From Candidatus Yanofskybacteria bacterium (GTDB taxonomy: Bacteria > Patescibacteriota > Minisyncoccia > 2-02-FULL-40-12 > IGHO2-01-FULL-4-A): a stretch of DNA of 64,000 bases. The notes beneath the pieces are model-generated. The model was not told the origin of the DNA and ran no database searches. It saw only the letters and a list, made by a program, of their open reading frames with translations. Where the stretch lies: NCBI GenBank assembly GCA_016181175.1, contig JACOZV010000003.1:39773-103772 (forward strand), in the 5' to 3' direction. The translations under genes and the position numbers were made by a program. Positions 1 through 53,618 of this stretch are shown here, piece by piece. Position 1 is the first letter of the stretch. The number at the start of each line of letters is the position of its first letter.

Positions 1-91
1 CCGATGAATAGTGGGTAGACCGGTCGGCTGCCCTTTTTTGTTATTTGTAGAACCTAGTTCTGCTAAAAATAGATAGAGCGCCGGAAATCTT

Positions 92-379
92 ATGCGTCTA
101 CCAAAGGTTTTATGGGTTTTTGTACTGGTCGTTTCTGTTGCCTATTTTGGCTACTCGGTTTATATGTTTTACTGGCGCATACTTTATTGTTCCAACTTGG
201 CAACAGAGGGCTCTAAAATACCACCCATAGAGATTTATGACACCATTGCTTACGAGAAAACCTTTAGGAAAGTTTGTGGCGGAGGGCCAGGATTTATACC
301 TATTGTGATTAGTGTTGTCGGAATGTACTATGGATTTCGTGGCTGGGTTCTAAATTCCGTAAAAGACCATAAAAAATAA
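92..379 (+). CDS. hypothetical small membrane protein (TM-soluble-TM architecture)
   Basis: 95-aa ORF with an N-terminal hydrophobic helix and a C-terminal hydrophobic segment. It is followed 2 nt later by a second 95-aa ORF of the same architecture. Confidence 0.4.
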   Translation: MRLPKVLWVFVLVVSVAYFGYSVYMFYWRILYCSNLATEGSKIPPIEIYDTIAYEKTFRKVCGGGPGFIPIVISVVGMYYGFRGWVLNSVKDHKK

Positions 380-381
380 AG

Positions 382-669
382 GTGAATAAAAATATAACCA
401 TGTTATCCAAAAAACATATTAGAATTTTTTCTCTTGTAATCGCTATTATTTTTGTCGTCCTTTCCGTGGGCAATATGGTTTTAAGAGTTGCTACATGTAT
501 TCAGCTAGAAAAACCGACCGCACCGCCGACAGATTATAGTTCAGATAGCGAAGTGGACGCATGGATTACTTATAAAAAGTTCTGCAGAAATCCCGTGCCT
601 TATATTATTCTTCTCTTAAGTGGTGGATATTTAATCTCTGCTATTCGGAAATTAAAGCGCAAGTACTAA
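382..669 (+). CDS. hypothetical small membrane protein
   Basis: 95 aa with two predicted TM segments, same strand as and directly upstream of the R-M genes. Confidence 0.4.
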   Translation: MNKNITMLSKKHIRIFSLVIAIIFVVLSVGNMVLRVATCIQLEKPTAPPTDYSSDSEVDAWITYKKFCRNPVPYIILLLSGGYLISAIRKLKRKY

Positions 670-701
670 AGGTATAGAAAATATAATAATTTAGTGCTAA
701 A

Positions 702-1502
702 TTGGATTTATCTAATAGTTTTGTATTACTCAAAGATGTAATGAAGAATCCTAAATTTCCAAAAGATTTTATAAATAAGATTGTCTGTGGTGATGTTTTA
801 GATATAATGAGACATATCCCGAATGACTCTGTTGATTTAGTAATTACTTCACCGCCATATAATCTCAAGAACTCAACTGGCAATGGTATGAAAGACGGCC
901 GAGGCGGTAAATGGGCAAATGCCGCTTTACAAAAAGGTTATACTCATCATGACGATTGTATGCCTCACGAAGAATATGTTAAGTGGCAGAAAAATTGTCT
1001 TACCGAAATGATGAGGATTATCCCTGAACATGGCGCTATTTTCTATAACCACAAGAGGCGAGTTCAAGACGGCATATTGCAGGACCGCCAAGATATAGTG
1101 GGCGGTTTCCCGGTGCGTCAAATTATAATCTGGCAGCGTAAGGGCGGTCTCAATTTTAATCCCGGTTATTTTCTTCCGACTCATGAGGTCATTTATCTTA
1201 TCGCAAAACCCAAATTTAAGCTTGCACCTAAAGCCAACGCTCATGGTGATGTTTGGGAATTTACTCAAGAAATGAAGAATAAACATCCGGCCGCTTTTCC
1301 GGTAGACCTTATTGACCGGATTGTTTCGTCTACTACGGCCCAAACCATTTTAGACCCTTTCATGGGTTCGGGCACTACGGCAATTTCTGCCCTTAATCAT
1401 AAAAGAAATTATATCGGGATTGAAATTTCTCCCGAATATTGTAAAATGGCACAACAAAGAATTAAAGACTATAAACCCCAAGACCCATTTTTATTACAAT
1501 GA
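702..1502 (+). CDS. beta-class DNA methyltransferase, probably N4-cytosine (SPPY motif IV; C-terminal FxGxG motif I)
   Basis: VITSPPYNL catalytic motif IV in the N-terminal half and DPFMGSGTTAISA AdoMet-binding motif I near the C-terminus (beta permutation). Its stop overlaps the next start (ATGA). Confidence 0.85.
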   Translation: MDLSNSFVLLKDVMKNPKFPKDFINKIVCGDVLDIMRHIPNDSVDLVITSPPYNLKNSTGNGMKDGRGGKWANAALQKGYTHHDDCMPHEEYVKWQKNCLTEMMRIIPEHGAIFYNHKRRVQDGILQDRQDIVGGFPVRQIIIWQRKGGLNFNPGYFLPTHEVIYLIAKPKFKLAPKANAHGDVWEFTQEMKNKHPAAFPVDLIDRIVSSTTAQTILDPFMGSGTTAISALNHKRNYIGIEISPEYCKMAQQRIKDYKPQDPFLLQ

Positions 1503-2296
1503 AAAAAGAACCGGTTATTTATACAAAGCAAGCGCTTATAGAAAAGCTCAAAGAAATTGCCGATATGGGTTGGATTAAGAACGCTCGCCATGGCAATCAG
1601 GGCGGTGTTGGGAATACTTTAGAAGATTTGCTTGGTATAGAGGAGAACAATCTGCCAATTCCTAATGCGGCCGAATGGGAGTTAAAGACACAAAGATTAA
1701 ATTCCGGCTCTTTGTGTACTCTTTTTCACATGGAGCCATCGCCCCGGGCCATTGGATTTGTTCCGAAAGTTCTTTTACCTAAATATGGCTGGCCTCATCA
1801 AGAGAGTGGTAAGAAATATACCAAAGGAGAAATGAGTTTTAGGCAAACCATTCAAGGACTTTCTAGGAGCGACCGCGGATTTATGGTTAAGATTGACCGG
1901 AAAGCAAAAAGGGTGCTGGTTTCTTTTGACACTAAAAGCGTAGATGCACGACACAAGAAATGGCTTAAGTCAGTTGAAAAACGCGTAGGTTTAGGCGAAT
2001 TAAATCCACAGCCCTATTGGGGCTTTGACGACTTGGAGCATAAGGCCGGGACCAAATTGCTAAACGCTTTCTATGTCCAAGCTAAAGTTAAAAAGATACG
2101 AGGCAAAGAGCATTACAAATATAGCAAGGTTATGATGTTGCAGAAGTTTAGTTTTGAAGGATTTTTGAAGGCGATTGAGGAGGCACAAATCTTTGTAGAT
2201 TTTGATGCCCGCACCGGTCATAATCACGGGACGAAATTTAGGGTAAGAGAGGACAGTTTACCGATGCTTTATGAAAAAGTAACGACCATTTTATGA
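1499..2296 (+). CDS. type II restriction endonuclease, MvaI/BcnI-like
   Basis: Translationally coupled to the MTase. The N-terminal region (GVGNTLEDLLGIEENNLPIPNAAEWELKT...SLCTLFHMEP) resembles, from memory, the BcnI/MvaI block ...GVVGQILERQFGVQENNITLGDLGEFELKG...NLTLFHKKP. That family pairs with m4C MTases. Confidence 0.55.
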   Translation: MKKEPVIYTKQALIEKLKEIADMGWIKNARHGNQGGVGNTLEDLLGIEENNLPIPNAAEWELKTQRLNSGSLCTLFHMEPSPRAIGFVPKVLLPKYGWPHQESGKKYTKGEMSFRQTIQGLSRSDRGFMVKIDRKAKRVLVSFDTKSVDARHKKWLKSVEKRVGLGELNPQPYWGFDDLEHKAGTKLLNAFYVQAKVKKIRGKEHYKYSKVMMLQKFSFEGFLKAIEEAQIFVDFDARTGHNHGTKFRVREDSLPMLYEKVTTIL

Positions 2297-3024
2297 AAGG
2301 TATAAAAGAATCCAAACCCTGGAAAATTGCTAGAAGGGCAAACGATTTCTTACTTCGCTGGTTTGGGTTTGATTTAATCATTGTCTTTCTTTTGGTTGTA
2401 GGAATCATCGTTATAATTAATTTCGGCGATCGGTCTGATTTTGACAAACTTGCTGTTTCTTTAATTCTTTGGGGAACTGCACTTTCTATTATTCAATATA
2501 CCAAAGAAACACACGGGCTTAGACTTTCAAATAAACGGCTTCTTGACAGTAGCGAGAGAGCAAACAATATAGCAGCAAGGCCGATACTTGCACCACGTTT
2601 TTTAGAAACAAACTACGGTACTGCTAATTACATCTCGGTTAATCTAAAGAATGTAGGAGGAGGGGTTGCAAAAAATATTCGGTGGAGCATCAAAGTAAAT
2701 AAAGATTCAGATAGCCTAGCTGATAAAAATTTATTCTGGCGGAGTTTAAACGAAGACACATTGCCTAAAATTTGGCCTAACTTTGGATATAGGGTAACAA
2801 TGTTTAAGAAAATGGATTACGATAACCTGTGGAAGACCGTTCTTATTGTTAAGTATGATTGGGAATTTAGAAACAATGAAACCGAGGTCTTTCCGTTGGA
2901 CCTAGATTATTACGCGTCCTCTGACTTATCCGGAAATCTCTTAGAAAAGTTGGACGATGTCTGGGTTCATGAAAAAATTAGAGAAATCGCGATTCGGCAC
3001 GTTAAATCACAGATAAATGAATAA
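2293..3024 (+). CDS. hypothetical membrane-anchored protein, third gene of the R-M operon
   Basis: Start overlaps the REase stop (ATGA). It has a predicted N-terminal TM helix and then a 200-aa soluble domain with no motif I recognise. Confidence 0.5.
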   Translation: MKGIKESKPWKIARRANDFLLRWFGFDLIIVFLLVVGIIVIINFGDRSDFDKLAVSLILWGTALSIIQYTKETHGLRLSNKRLLDSSERANNIAARPILAPRFLETNYGTANYISVNLKNVGGGVAKNIRWSIKVNKDSDSLADKNLFWRSLNEDTLPKIWPNFGYRVTMFKKMDYDNLWKTVLIVKYDWEFRNNETEVFPLDLDYYASSDLSGNLLEKLDDVWVHEKIREIAIRHVKSQINE

Positions 3025-3110
3025 GACGGGTTCAAATATCGTTTAATAGTCGGGGGGTAGTGTGATAAGATAGGTTCTAATATCATTCAATACCCTCCGC
3101 CAGTTAGGAA

Positions 3111-3626
3111 ATGAAGTCATTGGCTCGCCCGCTACGCGGGCTCGCCAGCCGTTTTGAATCTAAAATTATGAGAAAATTAATAATTTTTATCATCATCGCA
3201 GTTATTGTCGGCGCAGGCGTGTACTACGCTAGTTTTTATTTCAGAGAGACAAGGGTACAGGAAGAAATTCCTAAAGAAATGCTTACTAATATCAAGACGC
3301 TTCGCCGGGGCAACTTCGAAAAAATTGACATTATCCACGGCGGTTCTGGAAAGGCCCTGTTGCTGGAAGATGCCACTGGGCACAAACTGTTGAGGTTCGA
3401 GAATTTTGAAGTAACTAATGGCCCCGATCTTTACGTTTATCTTTCACGTAATCTCAAACCAACCGGAGACACCGAAAGTTTGGGTGATTTTATAAATCTT
3501 GGGCCTCTCAAGGGTAGCAAGGGTAACCAAAATTATGAGATAAATCAAAATATTGACGGCTACAACACGGCGGTGATCTGGTGCAAACAATTTGGGGTAC
3601 TATTTTCTTTCGCGGTTTTACAATAA
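3111..3626 (+). CDS. DM13 domain-containing secreted/membrane-anchored protein
   Basis: FEVTNGPDLYVYLS...NQNYEI...AVIWC matches the DM13 GPDLxVxL hallmark. A signal/TM segment (MRKLIIFIIIAVIVGAG) suggests the real start may be the internal ATG near 3168. Confidence 0.55.
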   Translation: MKSLARPLRGLASRFESKIMRKLIIFIIIAVIVGAGVYYASFYFRETRVQEEIPKEMLTNIKTLRRGNFEKIDIIHGGSGKALLLEDATGHKLLRFENFEVTNGPDLYVYLSRNLKPTGDTESLGDFINLGPLKGSKGNQNYEINQNIDGYNTAVIWCKQFGVLFSFAVLQ

Positions 3627-3690
3627 TTCGAATTGGTTTGGAGCTTCTCAAAACCACAATTTTGTGGTATTTTTATACTTGGAGGGTTCG

Positions 3691-3830
3691 CCTAATGGTT
3701 AAGGCACCACTCTTTAATCCAGCTCTTGGCGGTGAGGTGGCCGAGTGGGTTGAATGCGAAGCAAGCAGCATTCAACGGGCAACAAAAAGTTGCCCCGGAA
3801 ACATGAGGTCAACAGTTTTTTGATTGAGGC
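3691..3830 (+). repeat. degenerate tRNA-like fragments including an 18-nt exact copy of the tRNA-Ser 5' end (3731-3748), followed by two perfect hairpins and a T-run
   Basis: ggtgaggtggccgagtgg at 3731-3748 equals tRNA-Ser 3846-3863. Next come the hairpins gttgaatgc/gcattcaac (9 bp) and gggcaac/gttgccc (7 bp), and there is no T-arm. An upstream ggagggttcgcctaatggttaaggca resembles a tRNA acceptor plus D-arm. Confidence 0.5.
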
Positions 3831-3845
3831 TTTGTTGAAATTATT

Positions 3846-3935
3846 GGTGAGGTGGCCGAGTGGTTTAAGGCAACGGTCTTGAAAACCGTCATACGGGAAA
3901 CCGTATCGTGAGTTCGAATCTCACCCTCACCACCA
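3846..3935 (+). tRNA. tRNA-Ser (anticodon TGA), type II with long variable arm, CCA encoded
   Basis: Manual fold: acceptor ggtgagg/cctcacc, D-arm gcc-gagtggtttaa-ggc, anticodon stem acggt/accgt with loop cTTGAaa, variable stem atacgg/ccgtat, T-arm gtgag-ttcgaat-ctcac, discriminator A + CCA. Confidence 0.85.
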
Positions 3936-3961
3936 AGAGCTGGGCAAGTGCTATATAAAAA

Positions 3962-4504
3962 ATGGCTCACATAATTGATCTTAAAAATAGGCAGACGGTA
4001 TTGAAACCAGAAAATGGCGAAAGGTTGAATTTAGAGCAATCCTCAATCAGGGTTATTTCCTGGTCCGGCCGACTTTATCACCAGCCCAATAGGTTTGCGG
4101 CTACGGTTGCGGCAGTTATTTTTTTTGGAATCGCTGTTTTGATCCAAATTTTTCAAAAAAATCTCATCACAACCGTTTTTTTTGCTTTGATTGGTGCGGT
4201 AATTTTGCTCAACACAAGACATGAACCCACAAACAATAATTTTGAAATAAACCCGGGCGGCATATCAGTAAATGGCAAAATATACAACTACCGTGAAATC
4301 AAATCGTTTTGGATTGAATATGACCTAACGCTTGGCATAAAAGAATTGAGTCTGCAATTAAAAAAATGGCACACGCCTTATGTTAAAATACCCATAGCCG
4401 AGCAAAATCCTGTACAGCTGAGGTTGGCTCTGCTAGAGTTTTTACCTGAGGTTGAACACAAGGATACACTTGTTGAAATATTGGCGAGAAAATTAGGAAT
4501 TTAA
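3962..4504 (+). CDS. hypothetical membrane protein
   Basis: 180-aa ORF between two tRNAs with two central hydrophobic helices and no recognisable motif. Confidence 0.45.
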   Translation: MAHIIDLKNRQTVLKPENGERLNLEQSSIRVISWSGRLYHQPNRFAATVAAVIFFGIAVLIQIFQKNLITTVFFALIGAVILLNTRHEPTNNNFEINPGGISVNGKIYNYREIKSFWIEYDLTLGIKELSLQLKKWHTPYVKIPIAEQNPVQLRLALLEFLPEVEHKDTLVEILARKLGI

Positions 4505-4505
4505 A

Positions 4506-4577
4506 CCTCTCGTAGTTCAATGGACAGAACGCGAGATTGCGGATCTCGTAATCCAGGTTCGAATCCTGGCGGGAGGA
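4506..4577 (+). tRNA. tRNA-Arg (anticodon GCG)
   Basis: Manual fold: acceptor cctctcg/cgggagg (one G-U), D-stem gttc/gaac, anticodon stem cgaga/tctcg with loop ttGCGga, T-arm ccagg-ttcgaat-cctgg, discriminator A. Confidence 0.75.
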
Positions 4578-4589
4578 CAAAATTGAAAA

Positions 4590-4622
4590 GCCGCCACGTT
4601 CTTTGGGGTGTGGCGGCTTTTC
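4590..4622 (+). terminator. rho-independent terminator after tRNA-Arg
   Basis: gccgccac-gttctttgggg-gtggcggc stem followed by TTTTC. Confidence 0.7.
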
Positions 4623-4661
4623 AATTGGAGAGATTGGTGATATTAAAGTTATAATTAAACC

Positions 4662-6821
4662 ATGTTTGACTTGAACACTCCCATCGAAAAACTCACTCGT
4701 GTCGGACCGAAGTTTTTGGCACGTTTGAAAAAACTGGAAATAAAATCAATCAAAGATTTATTGTGGCACTTCCCGGCACGCTATGACGACTTCAGTAAGT
4801 TATTACTAATATCAGACATTAATAACGCGGGGGAAGTTGTAAGTATTGCCGGCGAAGTGACAGATATCGAAATGGCAAGGTCATGGCGGCGCAGAATGAT
4901 CATTGTTAACGCAACTGTTGAAGACCAAAGCGGTTCTATCCGCGCTGTCTGGTTCAACCAGCCTTATATCGCTGATGCCTTAAAAATCGGGACAAATGTC
5001 AGCTTATCCGGCAAAATTTCCATGGACAAAAATGGCTTATACTTTTCGTCACCATCTTATGAAAAAATTTTTCCGCTAGAAACCGGTTTAACACACACCG
5101 GCCGGCTGGTTCCTGTTTATCCGGAAACCGAAGGCATTACCTCCAAGTACTTGCGTTTTTTGATTAAACCAATCCTTTTAAAAATGAGAGGTGTGCCCGA
5201 TCCCCTACCGTCAGAGATTATTAAAAAATATAACCTGCCAAACTTAGTTAAAGCCATCAATCAAATACATTTTCCGAAAAATCTGGAACAAGCCGAATCG
5301 GCAAGAAAAAGATTTACACTTGAAGAGTTACTTTTATTCCAACTGAGAACGTTGCGCGATCACAGGCAACTCCGAATGTTAAAAGCACCCCGAATTAATT
5401 TTGACAAGAAAATAATATCAGACTTCGTGAAAAATCTGCCCTTTAAATTGACCGATGATCAGAGAGTAGCGGCATATGAAATTCTACAAGACTTGGAACG
5501 GCCTTTTCCCATGAACCGGCTCCTTAACGGCGACGTCGGTTCCGGAAAAACTGTTGTGGCATTAATATCAGCTTTTCAAACAGTTTCAGCCGGCTTTCAG
5601 ACAGTATTCATGGCCCCAACGGAAATACTGGCCAAACAACACTTTGACTCGCTTTGTTCAACCATACTCACTGCAAGTCGCTCGCTCAACGCGGACGCAA
5701 AAATCAAAATCGGATTGTTAACCGGGAGTGAAGCAAAGCAATTCCCGACAGACGAGGTTGTTGAAGAAAAAATCAGTAAGAAATTGCTGGCATTAAAAAT
5801 TGCCAAGGGGCAAATAGATATTGTAATCGGCACCCATGCAGTAATTCAAAAGGGTATAAAATTTGCGAAATTAGGCCTTGTAATAATAGACGAGCAACAC
5901 AGATTCGGAGTTAAACAACGAATGCAGCTAATTAAAAATCAAGAATTGGTGCCGCACCTCCTGTCCATGACCGCGACTCCGATCCCGCGCACACTAGCTC
6001 TGACCGTCTATGGAGACTTGGACGTTTCACTGATTAAAGAAAAACCCAAAGGTAGGCAGCAAATTATCACCAAAATTATTCCGCACAGTAAAAGAAGTGA
6101 CGCTCTTGAATTTGTAGAACAACAAATTCGGTCTGGACGCCAAGTTTTTGTCATATGTCCTCAAATTGAAACATCAAAAACAGAAGAACCGGCGCAAAAC
6201 AAACCAATTTCACAAACAAAATTAGTTTGGGCCGAAATTAAGGCCGTATCCGATGAGTACGAGAAACTCTCAAAAAAAGTTTTTTCCCACCGTAGGGTGG
6301 CAATGCTCCATGGAAAAATGAAACCAAAAGATAAGAATGAAATTATGAAAAAATTCAAAGATGGGCATTATGACATACTGGTATCCACTTCCGTTGTTGA
6401 AGTGGGCATGGACATACCCAACGCCGCCGTCATGATGATTGAGTCGGCCGAAAGATTCGGCTTGGCCCAATTGCATCAATTCCGGGGACGGGTCGGCCGC
6501 GGCAAACACCAATCATATTGCTTATTGTTTACAAGCAGTAACGACACACGGACAACCCGTAATTTAAAAGCACTTGAAAAAACCGACAGCGGTTTTGAGT
6601 TGGCAGAAGCTGATCTAAAAATACGCGGTCCCGGGGAATTTACGGGAACGCAACAGTCAGGCCTTCCTGATTTTGCAATGGCGTCACTTGCCGACATTGA
6701 TCTGATAAAAAAAACCAGGCTTGAAGCCAGGTTATTATTAAAAGATGATCCGGCGCTGAAACGCCATCCGCTCCTTGCCGCCAGATTGGCAGAAATGCAA
6801 AGATTGGTCCATTTTGAATAA
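4662..6821 (+). CDS. recG: ATP-dependent DNA helicase RecG
   Basis: N-terminal wedge/OB region, then Walker A DVGSGKTVVA, DEQHRFGV (DEQH box), TATPIPRTLA, and the RecG-typical C-terminus. Confidence 0.9.
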   Translation: MFDLNTPIEKLTRVGPKFLARLKKLEIKSIKDLLWHFPARYDDFSKLLLISDINNAGEVVSIAGEVTDIEMARSWRRRMIIVNATVEDQSGSIRAVWFNQPYIADALKIGTNVSLSGKISMDKNGLYFSSPSYEKIFPLETGLTHTGRLVPVYPETEGITSKYLRFLIKPILLKMRGVPDPLPSEIIKKYNLPNLVKAINQIHFPKNLEQAESARKRFTLEELLLFQLRTLRDHRQLRMLKAPRINFDKKIISDFVKNLPFKLTDDQRVAAYEILQDLERPFPMNRLLNGDVGSGKTVVALISAFQTVSAGFQTVFMAPTEILAKQHFDSLCSTILTASRSLNADAKIKIGLLTGSEAKQFPTDEVVEEKISKKLLALKIAKGQIDIVIGTHAVIQKGIKFAKLGLVIIDEQHRFGVKQRMQLIKNQELVPHLLSMTATPIPRTLALTVYGDLDVSLIKEKPKGRQQIITKIIPHSKRSDALEFVEQQIRSGRQVFVICPQIETSKTEEPAQNKPISQTKLVWAEIKAVSDEYEKLSKKVFSHRRVAMLHGKMKPKDKNEIMKKFKDGHYDILVSTSVVEVGMDIPNAAVMMIESAERFGLAQLHQFRGRVGRGKHQSYCLLFTSSNDTRTTRNLKALEKTDSGFELAEADLKIRGPGEFTGTQQSGLPDFAMASLADIDLIKKTRLEARLLLKDDPALKRHPLLAARLAEMQRLVHFE

Positions 6822-7216: not shown

Positions 7217-8791
7217 TTAGGTTTTTGGGTAACTCCGCGACTTTGGAGTTACCCAAAAACCCATATATTTACCGAGCATAAGACGGGTTTGAGCCTCAAG
7301 ACCCGGTAACGAACCAAGAAGAATAGTCGTTACCGGAAATAGAATCCACTGAAGTAACATCCAAACATGCTTAAATTTTCCATATCGCGGAGGCCTGGGT
7401 GGCAAAACAAAAATTGTAAATATGGCTGACGTCACCAATCCAATCATCGCAAAGGTCATAATTAAACGCGTAATAAACGGCAAGTTAAAAGACAAGACTG
7501 TTCTGTTAAACTGACTGCCTCCAACAATTACAGGCAACCAGCCAAGTAAAAATATTATAATCGCATTGGTGGCCCATGACCAAAATCTTTCCAACATTGT
7601 AAGGGCCAGGTAAATTTTCTTACCCAGACCGATTGCCTTATTTTTATAAAACCCAAAAATAAAATATGGCACATTTTCTACGCCATATCCCCAACGCCGC
7701 TGTTGCTTATAAACATTTACCATGGTTCGCCAAAACGTTTGGCCCACATTAGCATCCATTGAAACTGGGTAATATAAAGGTTCTACCTTGTATCGACTGT
7801 CATACCGCAAAAAACATTGCCAAAAAATGCGCGAATCCTCAGAAACCATGTTGGTCTGCCAAAAATCCACATCAACCAATGCGGCCAATGGCATTGAATG
7901 GCTAGAAAAAGTAGTGTCACTTTCCATGCGTTCCTGTTTTATCGTATGCCAGAATGTTGAAGAAAAAGCCACAACCCGCGCAAATGACGGTGCTTCCCAA
8001 ATGTTATTGGTATAAAACGGCACTGGCTGATAAGAAGAATGCAGTGGATCTTGCGAAGTAAGAAATGTATAAGTTAGGCGTAAAAAATATTGCGGAAAAA
8101 CGATAGTATCAATATCCAGAGCCGAAACTAAAACGCGATCATGTAAAATTCCCATATTATCTATTACTTCGCGTTTAGTAAATTTACCAGCCCAAGCAAT
8201 GTTAGATCCCTTGCCAGCCAACTCACCCTGTAGCGAAGCTGGGTGTTCAACAATTATCAATTTTAAAAAAACATTTTGGTATTTTGAAATTATTATTTTT
8301 GCTACCGAGGAATTAAAATCTTTCCCTGCCCGTTCTTCCTGAGCAACTACGACAATCATCCTGTTCTTTGGGTAATTTGAATTTGTTAATCCATCCAAGG
8401 TTGCATTTATCATTTCCGGATCTTCCTTGTAGGTAGGTAACAAAACTAAATGATAAATATCCTGCCAAGACTTAATGGCTGGCAACTGATAACTGGCGAC
8501 TGGCAACTGGTTTAAAGCCTTTGACCAGTCAATTTTCATATTCAAGCGCATTTGTTTAAACGCGACCCGCAAATGGAAAGACAAGTAAACCGTTTTAACA
8601 AACCAATAAACATCAAAAATAATTATAAAAATTGCGACAATAACAGGTTGAATAAATGATAAAACAACCGCAGCTATTAAAGTGGCCCAGGCCAGAAATC
8701 CAGGCAAAATCTCAAAAAACCGGTATAAAAACCGGTCCTTTTTATCAATTAAATCAGGGGCTCTACCTAATTTTAAATAACTATCAACCAC
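7217..8791 (-). CDS. membrane-embedded family-2 glycosyltransferase (processive, cellulose-synthase-like QxxRW type)
   Basis: Multiple TM helices flank a cytoplasmic GT domain with VVVAQEERAGK...GKGSNIAWAG and QQRRWGYG (the Q(Q/R)xRW motif). The last 14 codons are encoded by a perfect palindrome. Confidence 0.6.
   Translation of the reverse strand: MVDSYLKLGRAPDLIDKKDRFLYRFFEILPGFLAWATLIAAVVLSFIQPVIVAIFIIIFDVYWFVKTVYLSFHLRVAFKQMRLNMKIDWSKALNQLPVASYQLPAIKSWQDIYHLVLLPTYKEDPEMINATLDGLTNSNYPKNRMIVVVAQEERAGKDFNSSVAKIIISKYQNVFLKLIIVEHPASLQGELAGKGSNIAWAGKFTKREVIDNMGILHDRVLVSALDIDTIVFPQYFLRLTYTFLTSQDPLHSSYQPVPFYTNNIWEAPSFARVVAFSSTFWHTIKQERMESDTTFSSHSMPLAALVDVDFWQTNMVSEDSRIFWQCFLRYDSRYKVEPLYYPVSMDANVGQTFWRTMVNVYKQQRRWGYGVENVPYFIFGFYKNKAIGLGKKIYLALTMLERFWSWATNAIIIFLLGWLPVIVGGSQFNRTVLSFNLPFITRLIMTFAMIGLVTSAIFTIFVLPPRPPRYGKFKHVWMLLQWILFPVTTILLGSLPGLEAQTRLMLGKYMGFWVTPKSRSYPKT
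7221..7260. repeat. perfect 16-bp-arm palindrome (gtttttgggtaactcc-N8-ggagttacccaaaaac) inside the last codons of the GT2 gene
   Basis: Exact inverted repeat read directly from the sequence. It encodes GFWVTPKSRSYPKT on the minus strand and a similar GFWVTPRLWSYPKT on the plus strand. No U-tract follows on either strand. Confidence 0.6.
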
Positions 8792-8828
8792 AGACTCACA
8801 TTAGTTTAAAAATTAAAAGGGGGCAACA
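8792..8828 (-). terminator. rho-independent terminator after the 8837..9580 gene
   Basis: ggggc-aacat-gcccc hairpin followed by a T-run on the minus strand. Confidence 0.55.
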
Positions 8829-8836
8829 TGCCCCAG

Positions 8837-9580
8837 CTATTCGCTAATTGTGCCATTTTCCTCCGGCTCTAAGTTTATAGGACTTGCAGTGTCAATATCC
8901 GTAAATGAGTCGGTATATTGAGATACGACAACTTCTTGCTGTAATTTTTCCACAATAGACAAAAGGCGGTCAACAACTTTGTCGGTTTTGAGCATCTCTT
9001 CCTTGAACTCAAGACTAAAAAAAGTAGGAAAATTAACTAGTATGTGCCAAGGCAGAGAATAAATGATTTCTTTTTCCCTTCGTTGTACGTCGATTCCTGT
9101 TAACTGCCCGGCAATTAATTTACGAAGCTCCTGCTCTTCTTTGGGAATTTTCTCTTGCCATTTTTTCAAAAACAAACGTATAGACTCAACACACCCCCAT
9201 AAAATTGGCATTTGTGCGCCAGTCAATTCACCAATGGTAGAAATATCTTCCAGCTCTTTGATGCTTGCGATCAGCACCCCTTTATCACGCCAAATTTTAA
9301 TTGCTTCGGCCCTTGATTTTCCGCTTAAAAAATAAGCGTTATCCTTTTTTTCTAGTGAGCATACGGTTCCGACGAACCACAGTTTTGAGTCTAACTTACC
9401 CTCGGTTTCATTTTTTAACACTAGAAATCTTGCCTCGTCGAGTTGTTCTGGCAATTTAAAAGTTTTGATAAATCCAGTAACTTTCAAAAGTGTTGACGGA
9501 AAAATTATTGATTTTGACACGAATACTGGTAAAACAACGTCGTCACCCGCGCTCACAATTTGACCCGCAGATTTTGACAT
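8837..9580 (-). CDS. hypothetical protein, possibly with a Lon-N-terminal/PUA-like substrate-binding fold
   Basis: 247 aa. The N-terminal DVVLPVFVSKSIIFPSTLLKV weakly resembles the Lon N-domain LPLxPxxxxVxFP pattern. Low certainty. Confidence 0.35.
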   Translation of the reverse strand: MSKSAGQIVSAGDDVVLPVFVSKSIIFPSTLLKVTGFIKTFKLPEQLDEARFLVLKNETEGKLDSKLWFVGTVCSLEKKDNAYFLSGKSRAEAIKIWRDKGVLIASIKELEDISTIGELTGAQMPILWGCVESIRLFLKKWQEKIPKEEQELRKLIAGQLTGIDVQRREKEIIYSLPWHILVNFPTFFSLEFKEEMLKTDKVVDRLLSIVEKLQQEVVVSQYTDSFTDIDTASPINLEPEENGTISE

Positions 9581-50117: not shown

Positions 50118-53100
50118 ATGGCCGATTTTGATTTCCCCAAAGTAGAGGAAAAAATCCTCCATTTTTGGAAAGATCGGAAAATTTTTGAGAGATCTCTTGA
50201 AAACCGCGAACACGCGCGGCGGTTTGTTTTTTTTGAAGGGCCGCCGACAGCCAACGGCAAACCGGGCATACACCATTTCCTCGGCCGCATATTGAAAGAT
50301 CTTTTTGTCCGCTACAAAACTATGCGGGGTTACCTGGTTGCACGCAAAGCTGGCTGGGATACACACGGCTTACCGGTTGAAATTGAGGTAGAAAAAGAAC
50401 TTGAATTAAAAGATAAAAAAGAAATAGAAAAATACGGCATAGCCAAATTCAACGCAAAAGCCAAACAAAGTGTCTGGAAATATAAAGATGAATGGGAAAG
50501 ATTTACTCACCGCATTGGTTTCTGGTTAAACATGGGCGAGCCTTATATAACTTATGATTGGAAATACATGGAATCGCTTTGGTGGATCATCTCACAAATA
50601 GACAAACGTAAACTTCTCTATCAAGGTCACAAGATCCTTCCATGGTGTCCTCGCTGTGGTACTGCATTATCAAGCCATGAAGTCGCGCAGGGCTATGAAG
50701 ACGTAACCGAAACCTCGGTCTATGTTAAATTCAAACTCAAAAACCCGGAAAAAATTTTACCAGTTACCAGTGACCGGTTACCGGTTACCTACTTATTAGC
50801 TTGGACAACAACCCCATGGACACTTCCGGGTAATGTTGCCTTAGCCGTAGGAGAAAAAATCAAATATGCAATCGTACGAAAAGACAACGACTATTTATTG
50901 CTTGCCAAGGATTTAATTGAAAAAGTTGTACCCGATTCACAAATAATTCAAGAAATAAAAGGCAAAGATCTTGTTGGACTAGAATACAAACCGATTTTTA
51001 ATATTCCCGTCCTTCGACAAGGCTTCGGAGGACAAGCCTCATATAAAATTTATCCGGCCGATTTTGTCACCACAAAGGAAGGCACAGGCATTGTCCATAC
51101 AGCCGTAATGTACGGCGAGGATGACTATGAGTTGGGTAAAAAAATAGGCTTACCCAAACACCACACCGTTGATGAACAGGGTAAATTTACCAAAGAGGTA
51201 AAAGAATTCGCCGGTCAATACGTAAAAGATGCTGAAAAAGGAATAATAGAATATCTTGGTTCCCACGGACTACTTTTCAAAACGGAACAATTTACACACT
51301 CTTATCCGCATTGTTGGCGTTGCAACAATCCGCTTCTTTATTACGCAAAAGACTCCTGGTTTGTGGCAATGTCTAAACTCCGCAAACAACTTCTTAAAAA
51401 TAACAAAAAAATAAACTGGGTGCCTAACTATCTCAAGAACGGCCGTTTTGGCGAATTCTTAAAAGAAGCGAAAGACTGGGCTTTTTCACGCGAACGTTAT
51501 TGGGGAACGCCGTTGCCAATCTGGCAATGCCAAAATTGTAAAGAACAAAAAGTAATAGGCTCACTGGATGAATTAGAAAAACATAGATACCACGGCAAAA
51601 ATACATTTTTTGTTTTGCGTCATGGATTCAGCACTAAAAATGGCGCCCACGGACAAGACGCGATTACCGCCTCAAAACTTGAACATGACAAGTATGAACT
51701 AACGGACGATGGAATAGAACAGGTGCAAAAAACAGCTGATGAGCTTCTCGCAAGCGGGGGAGTAGATGTTATTTTCTCATCCCCGTTCTTAAGAACACGG
51801 CAATCAGCTGAACTCGTTGCCAAAAAGCTAGGCATGAAAGTAACGATAGATGCCAGGCTAAAAGAACTGGATCACGGCACTGTTTGTGAGGGTCAAACAC
51901 ACATGGTTTGCGTTTCACCCGATACTATTTTGACATTTGACACCAAATACGGAGACGGCGAAAGCTGGCGAGATGTCAAAATCAGAATGGCCGAGATTAT
52001 CCGTGAACTTGACCAAAAATATGAAAATAAAAAAATCCTGCTCGTAAGCCACGGCGACCCGATTTGGATACTAGAAGGGTTTACCAAAAACTGGAACGAT
52101 GAAGAAATGCTAAACGGACGAGGCGGCATCTATCTTCGAGAGGGTCATATGAAAAAAATTGAGTTGAAAAATCTTCCATATAACAATCGGGCCGAACTTG
52201 ATATGCACCGGCCGTATGTTGACGAGATATCGCTTAAGTGTGAAAAATGCGGAAATAAAATGTCCCGGATTAAAGATATCGCCGATGTTTGGTTTGACTC
52301 CGGCTCAATGCCGTACGCGCAGTGGCATTATCCATTTGAAAACAAAAAACGTTTTGATGAAAATTTCCCTGCTGATTTCGTTGCCGAAGGTATAGATCAG
52401 ACTCGCGGCTGGTTCTACACATTGCTTGCCGTATCTACTTTGCTTGGCCTGGAAACTCCATATAAAAACGTTATTTCTTACAGCCACGTTCTGGATGAGA
52501 AAGGCAAAAAAATGTCTAAATCTACCGGCAATGTGGTGGATCCGCGGATTATTATAGAAAAATTCGGAGTAGATGCCGCGAGGTGGTATTTTTATACAGT
52601 AAACAATCCTGCTGATTCTAAATTGTTTTCCATAAATGACGTTGGCAAAAAACTTAACGGTTTCATTATGACGCTGATGAACTCTTTGAGGTTTTTTGAG
52701 TTATATGGCAAACCCAGCAACAAAAAACCCAAAGCAGTTCCAACGAACCAATTGGATTCTTGGATACTTTCTCGACTAAATACTACTGCGGGGATTGTCG
52801 CCAAGTCCATGGACGGTTACGATCCCACAACTGCCACCCGCGAAATGGAAAAGTTTGTAGTGGAAGACTTATCAAATTGGTGGATCCGTCGCTCGCGCCA
52901 GCGTTTTCAGAAACCAGAAAATAAAGAAGAGCTTAGCCATGCGGTAGAACTTTTGCGGCACCTTCTGGTGGAATTAAGCAAAATGCTGGCACCGTTTACA
53001 CCATTTCTTGCTGATCATATTTATAAAAAACTTGATAACCGCAAAGAATCAGTCCATTTGGAAGATTGGCCGAAAATAAAAAAGAAGCTCATCAATCATG

Positions 53101-53618
53101 AGCTTGAAACACAAATGGCCGAATTGCGCGAAACCGCAACGCAAGGCCTTGCCCAAAGAAAAGAACGGGGGATAAAAGTGCGCCAGCCGCTTGCCGGCAT
53201 CACGCTCAAGAAAGCCAATAAATTTGACCCCGGCTTGGAACAACTACTTTTAGATGAATTGAATGTTAAAAATGTACTCTACGAGACCGGCCAACAAGAT
53301 ACTATAAGTATAGACCACAAACTTACGCCCGATCTGTTAATGGAGGGCTATGCCCGAGAAATAATGCGTCAGATTCAGGATATGCGAAAAGAAGCCAAAT
53401 ATAAATTATATGAAAAAGTACATGCGGCTTGGGAAAGTCAAAATCAGGAAGTTATTGAAGCCTTAAAAAAACACGAAAAGGAAATAGCTGAAGACACACT
53501 GCTTTCGGAATTTAGTCGCGGACACGATCCAAAAAAAATTTTTGACGTTGAAAAAGAGTTTGAACTAGGACCACAAGCTAAAATTTGGTTAGGAGTCCAC
53601 GCTAAAAATAGGTTATGA
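50118..53618 (+). CDS. ileS: isoleucine--tRNA ligase (type 2-like) carrying an inserted histidine-phosphatase (PGAM-like) domain
   Basis: PPTANGKPGIHHFLGR (HIGH), editing-domain WTTTPWTLPGN and TGIVHTAVMYGEDD, KKMSKSTGN (KMSKS). Between the WQCQNCK zinc knuckle and DMHRPYVDEI lies about 200 aa with LRHGFSTKNG (RHGxxxxN), LTDDGIEQVQKTA, VIFSSPFLRTRQSA and LLVSHGDPI, the complete histidine-phosphatase motif set. Confidence 0.9.
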   Translation: MADFDFPKVEEKILHFWKDRKIFERSLENREHARRFVFFEGPPTANGKPGIHHFLGRILKDLFVRYKTMRGYLVARKAGWDTHGLPVEIEVEKELELKDKKEIEKYGIAKFNAKAKQSVWKYKDEWERFTHRIGFWLNMGEPYITYDWKYMESLWWIISQIDKRKLLYQGHKILPWCPRCGTALSSHEVAQGYEDVTETSVYVKFKLKNPEKILPVTSDRLPVTYLLAWTTTPWTLPGNVALAVGEKIKYAIVRKDNDYLLLAKDLIEKVVPDSQIIQEIKGKDLVGLEYKPIFNIPVLRQGFGGQASYKIYPADFVTTKEGTGIVHTAVMYGEDDYELGKKIGLPKHHTVDEQGKFTKEVKEFAGQYVKDAEKGIIEYLGSHGLLFKTEQFTHSYPHCWRCNNPLLYYAKDSWFVAMSKLRKQLLKNNKKINWVPNYLKNGRFGEFLKEAKDWAFSRERYWGTPLPIWQCQNCKEQKVIGSLDELEKHRYHGKNTFFVLRHGFSTKNGAHGQDAITASKLEHDKYELTDDGIEQVQKTADELLASGGVDVIFSSPFLRTRQSAELVAKKLGMKVTIDARLKELDHGTVCEGQTHMVCVSPDTILTFDTKYGDGESWRDVKIRMAEIIRELDQKYENKKILLVSHGDPIWILEGFTKNWNDEEMLNGRGGIYLREGHMKKIELKNLPYNNRAELDMHRPYVDEISLKCEKCGNKMSRIKDIADVWFDSGSMPYAQWHYPFENKKRFDENFPADFVAEGIDQTRGWFYTLLAVSTLLGLETPYKNVISYSHVLDEKGKKMSKSTGNVVDPRIIIEKFGVDAARWYFYTVNNPADSKLFSINDVGKKLNGFIMTLMNSLRFFELYGKPSNKKPKAVPTNQLDSWILSRLNTTAGIVAKSMDGYDPTTATREMEKFVVEDLSNWWIRRSRQRFQKPENKEELSHAVELLRHLLVELSKMLAPFTPFLADHIYKKLDNRKESVHLEDWPKIKKKLINHELETQMAELRETATQGLAQRKERGIKVRQPLAGITLKKANKFDPGLEQLLLDELNVKNVLYETGQQDTISIDHKLTPDLLMEGYAREIMRQIQDMRKEAKYKLYEKVHAAWESQNQEVIEALKKHEKEIAEDTLLSEFSRGHDPKKIFDVEKEFELGPQAKIWLGVHAKNRL

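Follow-up and report, generated by a model that had tools for sequence, protein, structure and literature searches.

An MvaI/BcnI-type restriction–modification gene pair of Candidatus Yanofskybacteria with a variable gene position behind it, occupied by a probable autonomous membrane-protein cargo

The 64-kb stretch of DNA analysed here (64,000 nucleotides; referred to as the window) comes from an uncultured groundwater bacterium of the candidate phyla radiation (CPR), Candidatus Yanofskybacteria. It carries a cluster of three genes encoding a DNA methyltransferase (MTase; M), a restriction endonuclease (REase; R), and a membrane protein of an unannotated CPR family (X). Judging by its sequence, the core of this locus is an ordinary, functional-looking two-gene type IIP restriction–modification (R-M) system of the MvaI/BcnI kind. 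The position 3' of R is a variable cargo slot. The comparisons suggest that X is neither a subunit nor a requirement of the R-M system but a dispensable gene unspecific to M-R, because it is replaced in one related locus (L031), deleted in another that keeps M and R intact (L034), and free of R-M genes in its nearest relatives (the numbers L001 etc. designate the related loci compared with the window). We conclude that X is probably an autonomous island cargo, the role of which, if defensive, is independent of restriction.

The three genes form the end of a series of five successive open reading frames (ORFs) on the plus strand (Table 1). In the raw sequence, the M/R junction reads caATGAaa at 1499–1502 and the R/X junction reads ttATGAaa at 2293–2296; at both sites the start codon of the downstream gene overlaps the stop codon of the upstream one by 4 nt. 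These overlaps confirmed the three-gene operon with ATGA–ATGA junctions proposed in the preliminary description of this DNA. No terminator-like site was found within the operon or right after it in a scan of positions 1–4700, but the scan was uninformative, as the counts of promoters and terminators stayed at the shuffle background. We infer that M, R, and X are co-transcribed, and the translation of X is probably coupled to that of R. It should be noted that 4-nt overlaps occur in 8 of the 49 same-strand neighbour pairs of the window (16%). As such overlaps are common in the genome, the double ATGA reflects tight operon packing and is nothing rare.

The M protein matched the Pfam family PF01555 (N6_N4_Mtase) at 4.7e-41 (141.6 bits, with the curated threshold at 26.7; positions 1–220 of the 221 in the profile) and the PADLOC profile MTase_II (PDLC03305) at 8.5e-118. 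In MTases, a (S/D)PPY motif IV located N-terminally to the S-adenosylmethionine (AdoMet)-binding motif I (FxGxG) is the order that defines the beta class. M belongs to this class because its motif IV VITSPPYNL (ITSPPYNL at approximately aa 48–55) stands before motif I DPFMGSGTT (approximately aa 213–221). The closest solved relative of M in a PDB search was the N4-cytosine MTase of the rotifer Adineta vaga (8s9n; 1.1e-36), while the N6-adenine enzymes CcrM, MboIIA, and RsrI matched M in the C-terminal AdoMet region only. The 8s9n protein is an experimentally characterised N4-cytosine MTase (PMC10406627). Both this relationship and the presence of SPPY instead of DPPY indicate that the product of M is probably N4-methylcytosine (m4C), in agreement with what the preliminary description had supposed. 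Since the relatives of M have been called at 250–253 aa, M probably starts at ATG 741.

Apart from this, the PADLOC profile PDLC03305 is a single model of 513 positions, of which 5–243 matched M and 256–509 matched the REase. As one profile spans both M and R, fused single-chain M-R versions exist in the reference set.

MvaI cuts CC^WGG, while BcnI and NciI cut CC^SGG; they are monomeric MutH-like REases paired with N4-cytosine MTases. The assignment of R to the MvaI/BcnI family, made earlier without database searches, was upheld by the family profile: R matched PF15515 (MvaI_BcnI) from end to end at 9.4e-65 (219.2 bits, with the curated threshold at 25; all 227 positions of the profile). It also matched PADLOC REase_II at 4.3e-84, the MvaI structure 2oa9 at 1.1e-17 over aa 13–254, and BcnI at 2.9e-6. 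The locus thus resembles the MvaI/BcnI systems in the full-length match of R to both the family and the MvaI structure and in the adjoining SPPY beta-class MTase, which is expected for an m4C-protected CCNGG-type site; besides, one close homolog of R is labelled 'nciI' by its source. Unlike MvaI, to which it is ~33% identical in the aligned part, R has a changed active site, and unlike the MvaI/BcnI systems, the window has a third, probably translationally coupled cistron.

The active site of MvaI consists of Glu36, Asp50, Glu55, and Lys57, with Asp50 ligating both metal ions (PMC1874612). For the comparison, R was aligned with two close relatives, a homolog from an Acinetobacter plasmid (41%), a homolog from a Lactococcus plasmid, an LlaMI-like enzyme, MvaI, and BcnI (alignment A6). 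The equivalents of the four residues in R are E42, N56, E61, and K63: the two Glu and the Lys are kept, whereas Asn (codon at approximately 1664–1666) replaces the metal-bridging Asp. In a search that gave 6981 R homologs at E ≤ 1e-10, Asn occupied this position in all of the best 120, essentially all of which also had the motif P-N-A-x-E-W-E-L-K, whereas all more distant family members examined in alignment A6 retained Asp. From these alignments, Asn56 is read as a clade-wide active-site variant of R. Catalysis in this REase clade, the most widespread one in CPR and DPANN, may therefore rely on a non-canonical active site. Alignment A6 shows another acidic residue nearby, E59, which may compensate for the exchange, or R may use one metal ion. 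The ratio of non-synonymous to synonymous substitution rates (dN/dS) of 0.03–0.05 points to very strong purifying selection on R. Together with the fixation of Asn across the clade, this led us to reject the idea that R is a decaying pseudogene. A lack of catalytic residues, named in the preliminary description as grounds against a REase, was thus found in part, at Asp50, while the other three of the four residues are kept and the variant is clade-wide and under selection.

In every related locus whose contig extended 5' of R, an MTase gene adjoined it, with a 4-nt overlap in the window, L001–L003, L031/L032, and L034 and with a 3-nt gap in L033. The best 120 of the 6981 R homologs are 77–91% identical to R and come from Parcubacteria, Zambryskibacteria, Roizmanbacteria, Peregrinibacteria, Aenigmatarchaeota, and others. 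Since R homologs of ~80% identity are spread across CPR phyla and DPANN archaea, we consider M-R to be a highly mobile module. In the window, the observed-to-expected ratio (O/E) was 0.85 for CCWGG and 0.79 for CCSGG (the eighth lowest of the 512 5-mers), a weak avoidance that is too weak to assign the site.

The examination of related loci revealed that different genes stand behind R. L031 and L032, with an REase 89% identical to R, have the order sTM2 homolog (sTM2 being the small ORF directly 5' of M), M, and R, which is the left context of the window. At the identical TTATGA junction, L031 (1954–2766) has an unrelated gene for a 270-aa protein that contains an N-terminal CxxC...C zinc-ribbon-like region and has no Pfam or PADLOC match. 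In L033 (REase 84% identical), the place 3' of R (1988–3301) is taken by the PADLOC candidate system PDC-M48A/B, in which PDC-M48A is a 162-aa protein with several transmembrane (TM) segments (9.1e-65) and PDC-M48B has a metallo-beta-lactamase fold. As the L031 gene and PDC-M48 stand there in place of X, the slot 3' of R is a cargo site. Meanwhile, M and R are intact in L034 (90–91% identical; REase 91%), where X is internally deleted (1833–2257), leaving a 65-aa ORF (X aa 1–56) and a 74-aa ORF (X aa 165–243); a TehB-like gene follows these remnants, as in L006. X is therefore not a consistent companion of M-R: in L031, L033, and L034 it is lacking, exchanged for another gene, or deleted, its close homologs number four against the 6981 of the REase, and nearly all of these ~7000 REase homologs are without it.

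On the other hand, M, R, and X do occur as a block. The locus L001, from a second Yanofskybacteria genome (GCA_016185525), contains M-R-X with both 4-nt overlaps as in the window. In a translated comparison, the window and L001 shared positions 753–3043 only, i.e., the homology runs from the MTase coding sequence to just past the stop codon of X, and the flanks differ on both sides. The synonymous divergence (dS) between the two copies is 0.72 for M, 0.85 for R, and 0.56 for X, and this similarity in all three genes fits a shared history as a block. M is 91% identical in amino acids to its L001 copy (dN/dS 0.05–0.06). In L001, a tRNA-Gln(TTG) gene (6385–6456) ends one base before the start codon of the MTase. 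In L006, where X is 79% identical, the 3' end of the REase gene with ATGA lies directly upstream of X, and a tRNA-Ser(TGA) gene is found ~0.8 kb 3' of X, as in the window; the intervening gene is TehB-like in L006 and encodes a DM13 protein in the window. The cassette thus sits at tRNA-linked variable spots. The ATGA overlap of R and X is kept in three loci, those of the window, L001–L004, and L006.

X had no match in Pfam, NCBIfam, or PADLOC (0 PADLOC-DB v2 families at E ≤ 1). A search of 5.8 billion clustered proteins returned four close homologs, 68–100% identical and all of 243 aa, the 100% match being a hypothetical protein from a Candidatus Yanofskybacteria MAG. When 1.84 billion representatives were searched exhaustively with HMMER, 31 proteins were obtained at E ≤ 1e-3, two of which were spurious repeat proteins. 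In the alignment of the 29 family members (A1), the residues T62, Y69, E72, L76, P97, and N120 are invariant and fall within two motifs, of which ILWxTAxxIxQYTKETYxLK closes the second hydrophobic segment and LKNxGxGxAxNI opens the beta domain. The protein is predicted to start with a basic N-terminal helix, TM1 (~24–44), and TM2 (~53–73), at the end of which stands the conserved IIQYTKET; then come a long helix, a CARDB-like beta-sandwich (99–201) that carries the motif LKNVGGGVAKNI, and a C-terminal helix (214–242). A confident alignment-based AlphaFold2 model with a mean predicted local distance difference test score (pLDDT) of 84.3 had helices at the N-terminus and at 28–44, 50–94, and 214–242 as well as seven strands within 99–201.

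Hydropathy analysis gave a strong TM segment at aa 24–42, which bears out the N-terminal anchor first proposed for this 243-aa protein, and a second segment at aa 53–69, the mean of which (~1.65, hand calculation) is below the threshold of the 19-residue scan. A charge of +5 precedes TM1, the short loop has −1, and +3 follows TM2. This distribution favours a hairpin with both termini inside (N-in, C-in), so that the beta-sandwich would probably lie in the cytoplasm. In a Pfam scan of all 29 family members, CARDB (PF07705) was the sole match, weak and below threshold, in 3 members (best 3.1e-4) and not in X itself. The profile of the X family had no match among PDB sequences, and PHROGs contained one weak match, phrog_9607 (function unknown), at E 0.002. 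The tblastn searches of 50,697 phage records and 72,556 plasmids gave no match to X, and no relative was found in IMG/VR contigs. A genome scan with the single protein returned L001 again and one Veblenbacteria relative, nothing more. The dN/dS of X (0.14–0.26) indicates purifying selection, with non-synonymous evolution about five times faster than that of M and R (0.03–0.06).

Usable flanks were available for 13 other loci of the X family. The closest other relatives of X, namely L005 (68%), L007 (45%), L026–28, and L029, have no R-M neighbour, and the same is true of L010. In L005, X comes after a terminator-like hairpin and has its own promoter-like site TTGACA-17-TATATT. The neighbours are His_Phos_1 and PRK in L005, AAA_28 and thiolase in L026, PRTase and CYTH in L029, Band_7 and Peptidase_C39 in L016, and, in L010, a tRNA synthetase gene that overlaps the X-like gene and is followed by PNPOx. 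Further mixed contexts included HD_4 with SNase and HTH-HSP20 with NYN, and overlaps of a few bases between an X-like gene and an unrelated neighbour were seen in L010, L012, and L024. In an all-against-all BLAST of the neighbours, no partner gene was conserved across the X loci; a TehB-like methyltransferase recurred in two lineages only.

In 4 of the 13 loci, R-M or candidate defence genes are no more than two genes away from the X-like gene. Contexts with such genes are those of L017 (an HNH_2 nuclease and two N6_N4 MTases, followed at a greater distance by an AEP-TOTE primase), L019 (type I HsdS), L021/22 (an RE_LlaMI nuclease and a C5 MTase fused with LexA/S24), and L008 (HNH, PDC-S06, and GIY-YIG). 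The X-like genes of L017, L019, and L021 come from a single subclade, in which three of the four loci have R-M or candidate defence genes at most two genes away; the three R-M types are unrelated, and the X-like gene is either divergent from the R-M genes or separated from them by another gene. We assumed that a few percent of CPR genes are expected so near an R-M gene. The four loci are suggestive of a family residing in variable or defence islands and fall short of proof of a defence function. The expectation that homologs of the third gene recur beside R-M or defence genes thus came true for more distant family members at these four of the 13 loci and failed for the closest free-standing relatives L005, L007, L026, and L029. 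The latter have unrelated neighbours, a situation that the preliminary description had counted against a composite locus; there may still be a looser association with defence islands.

Two loci of this subclade have further features. In L017, the AEP-TOTE primase/AAA_25 protein is encoded at 7357–8943, ~1.7 kb downstream of the X-like gene and its R-M system, which suggests that this X copy is on an integrated or extrachromosomal mobile element. In L021, the C5 DNA methylase (3203–4903, minus strand) is fused at its N-terminus to a DNA-binding domain of LexA and a peptidase domain of the S24 type. Its gene is convergent with that of an LlaMI/MvaI-like REase (2400–3206, plus strand), their 3' ends overlapping by 4 nt, and its start is 23 nt from the divergent X-like gene (4926–5597, plus strand). 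To our knowledge, the fusion of a self-cleaving repressor with an MTase is unusual.

In having a small extra gene presumably co-transcribed with M and R, the window is similar to R-M operons with controller (C) proteins or Vsr. Unlike in those operons, the extra gene encodes a 243-aa membrane protein and is dispensable in L034. We rejected X as a controller or Vsr because it has no helix-turn-helix or Vsr-like nuclease domain and is located downstream of R, while a controller stands upstream. Cap15 of the cyclic oligonucleotide-based anti-phage signalling system (CBASS) and S-2TM-beta are abortive-infection effectors built of two TM segments and a beta domain. X shares with the Cap15-type effectors the neighbourhood of defence genes and an overall build in which a TM hairpin at the N-terminus leads into a small all-beta domain, probably in the cytoplasm, but its beta domain resembles a CARDB/Ig-like sandwich and not a barrel, and it has no cyclase or signal-generating partner. 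Cap15 was not among the 50 PDB Foldseek matches listed for X, and no PADLOC family matched at E ≤ 1. The best of the Foldseek matches (E ~1e-4) were KirBac/Kir channels and archaeal type IV pilins, which likewise have TM helices followed by an Ig-like beta-sandwich. However, the TM-scores were 0.2–0.33, X has neither pore helix nor selectivity filter, and no sequence similarity to these proteins was found, i.e., the likeness is one of architecture only. Finally, X stands directly 3' of the same M-R pair as PDC-M48 of L033, which also begins with a small multi-TM protein, but PDC-M48 is unrelated in sequence and consists of two genes, one of them for the metallo-beta-lactamase-fold partner. The shared position does not identify X as a PDC-M48.

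An alternative to the cargo reading is that X is a true accessory of restriction, making the locus a three-component composite defence. X might then act in the membrane as an effector or tether, being activated by restriction or regulating it, as an abortive-infection back-up for cases of failed restriction, or as a device that holds R at the membrane where foreign DNA enters. This would agree with the conserved R–X overlap in the window, L001–L004, and L006, the movement of M-R-X as one block into differing flanks with similar dS, the purifying selection on X, and the occurrence of one X subclade beside three different R-M systems. We nevertheless consider it very unlikely, as four close X homologs stand against ~7000 REase homologs, an unrelated gene occupies the same junction in L031, X is deleted in L034 beside intact M and R, and the nearest free-standing relatives have no R-M neighbour. 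In addition, the X-like genes of L017, L019, and L021 are divergent or one gene apart from R-M systems that are mutually unrelated, X matches no PADLOC model, and 4-nt overlaps are common in the genome. We find about as unlikely the broader idea of the X family as a new CPR-specific membrane effector working with varied R-M types, with the window as its tightest form, a three-gene composite defence; such an effector might, for example, collapse the membrane once it senses damaged DNA or a failure of restriction, or it might guard a DNA-entry site. The composite defence locus put forward in the preliminary description therefore stands as far as the block recurs in another Yanofskybacteria genome and is not supported as far as X was to be a component of the R-M system, in view of L031, L034, and the free-standing relatives.

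X could also have no defence role at all. It would then be a membrane protein with a housekeeping or cell-envelope function in CPR bacteria that came to stand behind the R-M genes through compact-genome packing only. CARDB-like domains are typical of surface proteins, and the weak CARDB matches in the X family fit this idea, as do the contexts in L010, L016, L026, L029, and L005, which are not defence-like, the overlaps of X-like genes with unrelated neighbours in L010, L012, and L024, and the 16% of same-strand neighbour pairs in the window that overlap by 4 nt. In spite of this, we find it rather unlikely: R-M or candidate defence genes are at most two genes away in 4 of the 13 other loci and in three of the four loci of one subclade; X is patchy, present in few genomes with changing flanks, unlike a housekeeping gene; and it evolves comparatively fast (dN/dS 0.14–0.26 against 0.03–0.06 for M and R). 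As to the other half of the locus, R might be no active restriction enzyme but a DNA-binding, nicking, or re-purposed protein, the locus then consisting of an MTase and a non-restricting partner. Asn56 in place of an Asp that ligates both metal ions in MvaI (PMC1874612) and is retained by all more distant members examined speaks for this, and so does the lack of clear avoidance of CCWGG and CCSGG in the window. We regard it as highly improbable, since Asn is fixed in the best 120 of the 6981 homologs at a dN/dS of 0.03–0.05, an MTase adjoins R in every related locus with a contig reaching upstream, the pair has spread horizontally as widely as a selfish active R-M system would, and E42, E61, and K63 are conserved with the acidic E59 nearby.

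Several points weigh against the reading of the locus as a standard R-M pair with an autonomous cargo. The conserved ATGA coupling and the movement of M-R-X as a unit would also be predicted by a functional link, and the presence of one X subclade beside three R-M types fits a functional partnership with R-M as well as a shared island. The deletion in L034 is known from one metagenome contig and could be recent decay or an assembly artefact. The proportion of 4 in 13 was compared with an assumed and not a counted baseline of R-M neighbours in CPR genomes. As TM2 is only moderately hydrophobic, the topology of X is uncertain, and its beta-sandwich could lie outside the cell. Nothing beyond generic TM-plus-Ig-like matches, with TM-scores below 0.4, came from the fold searches. 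Lastly, with Asn at the position of MvaI Asp50, the standard cleavage chemistry of R is assumed.

On the reading that we prefer, with X as cargo, M would most likely make N4-methylcytosine in a 5-bp CCNGG-type site, and R would be a monomeric MutH-like nuclease cutting unmethylated sites, a single strand per step; both proposals follow from family membership. The pair would represent a very successful mobile clade with ~80% identity across many CPR phyla and DPANN archaea. X would have been joined exactly at the stop codon of R (ATGA) in one Yanofskybacteria lineage and have travelled since then as one block with M and R. It would have been drawn from a CPR-wide unannotated family with an N-in TM hairpin, an invariant juxtamembrane QYTKET, a CARDB-like beta-sandwich, and a C-terminal helix. 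Expressed alongside the R-M system yet acting independently, X would most likely have an autonomous function at the membrane, e.g., exclusion of phages or mobile elements or that of an abortive-infection-type effector.

Taken as a whole, what the window shows here is for the most part an ordinary R-M system that carries a passenger gene not yet characterised. CPR bacteria are largely without CRISPR and are thought to depend on R-M systems, and the specificity and chemistry of the M-R clade bear on many uncultured CPR and DPANN lineages. The clade-wide Asp-to-Asn exchange in a nuclease active site is a concrete and cheap biochemical question. The cargo slot 3' of R offers a practical starting point in the search for new defence genes in poorly annotated genomes, and X represents a family of membrane proteins, so far unannotated, whose members repeatedly adjoin R-M systems of unrelated types. 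Should X turn out to work together with restriction, R-M accessories of a new kind would have been found.

The genes around the cassette are listed in Table 1 together with M, R, and X. The two small ORFs upstream of M, on the same strand as had been described, are at the sequence level not the paralogs that they had seemed to be, since a BLASTP comparison of sTM1 with sTM2 gave no alignment. sTM1 had no family match and no counterpart in the related loci. A homolog of sTM2 (56% identical) was found directly 5' of M-R in L031 only and is absent 5' of M in L001, where the tRNA-Gln gene abuts M. Both sTM1 and sTM2 are context outside the mobile, conserved block. Downstream, the DM13 gene fills the variable slot between X and tRNA-Ser, which holds a TehB-like methyltransferase gene in L006 and L034, and the tRNA-Ser(TGA) gene is a landmark 3' of the cassette common to the window and L006.

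Table 1. Features of the M-R-X locus and its surroundings, with positions in the window
Feature	Position	Strand	Remarks
sTM1, small hydrophobic protein	92–379	+	95 aa, ORF
sTM2, small hydrophobic protein, directly 5' of M	382–669	+	95 aa, ORF
M, beta-class N4/N6 DNA methyltransferase	702–1502	+	maximal ORF 266 aa from TTG 702
R, MvaI/BcnI-family MutH-like PD-(D/E)XK type IIP REase (predicted)	1499–2296	+	265 aa
X, membrane protein of unannotated CPR family	2293–3024	+	243 aa
DM13-domain protein, N-terminal TM	3111–3626	+	PF10517 2.8e-17
tRNA-Ser(TGA)	3846–3935	+	ARAGORN

The remaining window is made up of housekeeping genes, including those for a RecG-like helicase, PolA, PNPase, ArgRS, IleRS, and IMPDH. 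By far the most under-represented 5-mer of the whole window was CTCAG/CTGAG, seen 20 times on both strands against 57.6 expected (O/E 0.35), and this scarcity hints at another restriction specificity acting on the genome. The IleRS-like class I tRNA synthetase (50118–53618, plus strand; 1166 aa) has a His_Phos_1 (histidine phosphatase) domain inserted at aa 499–652 between two parts of its catalytic domain.

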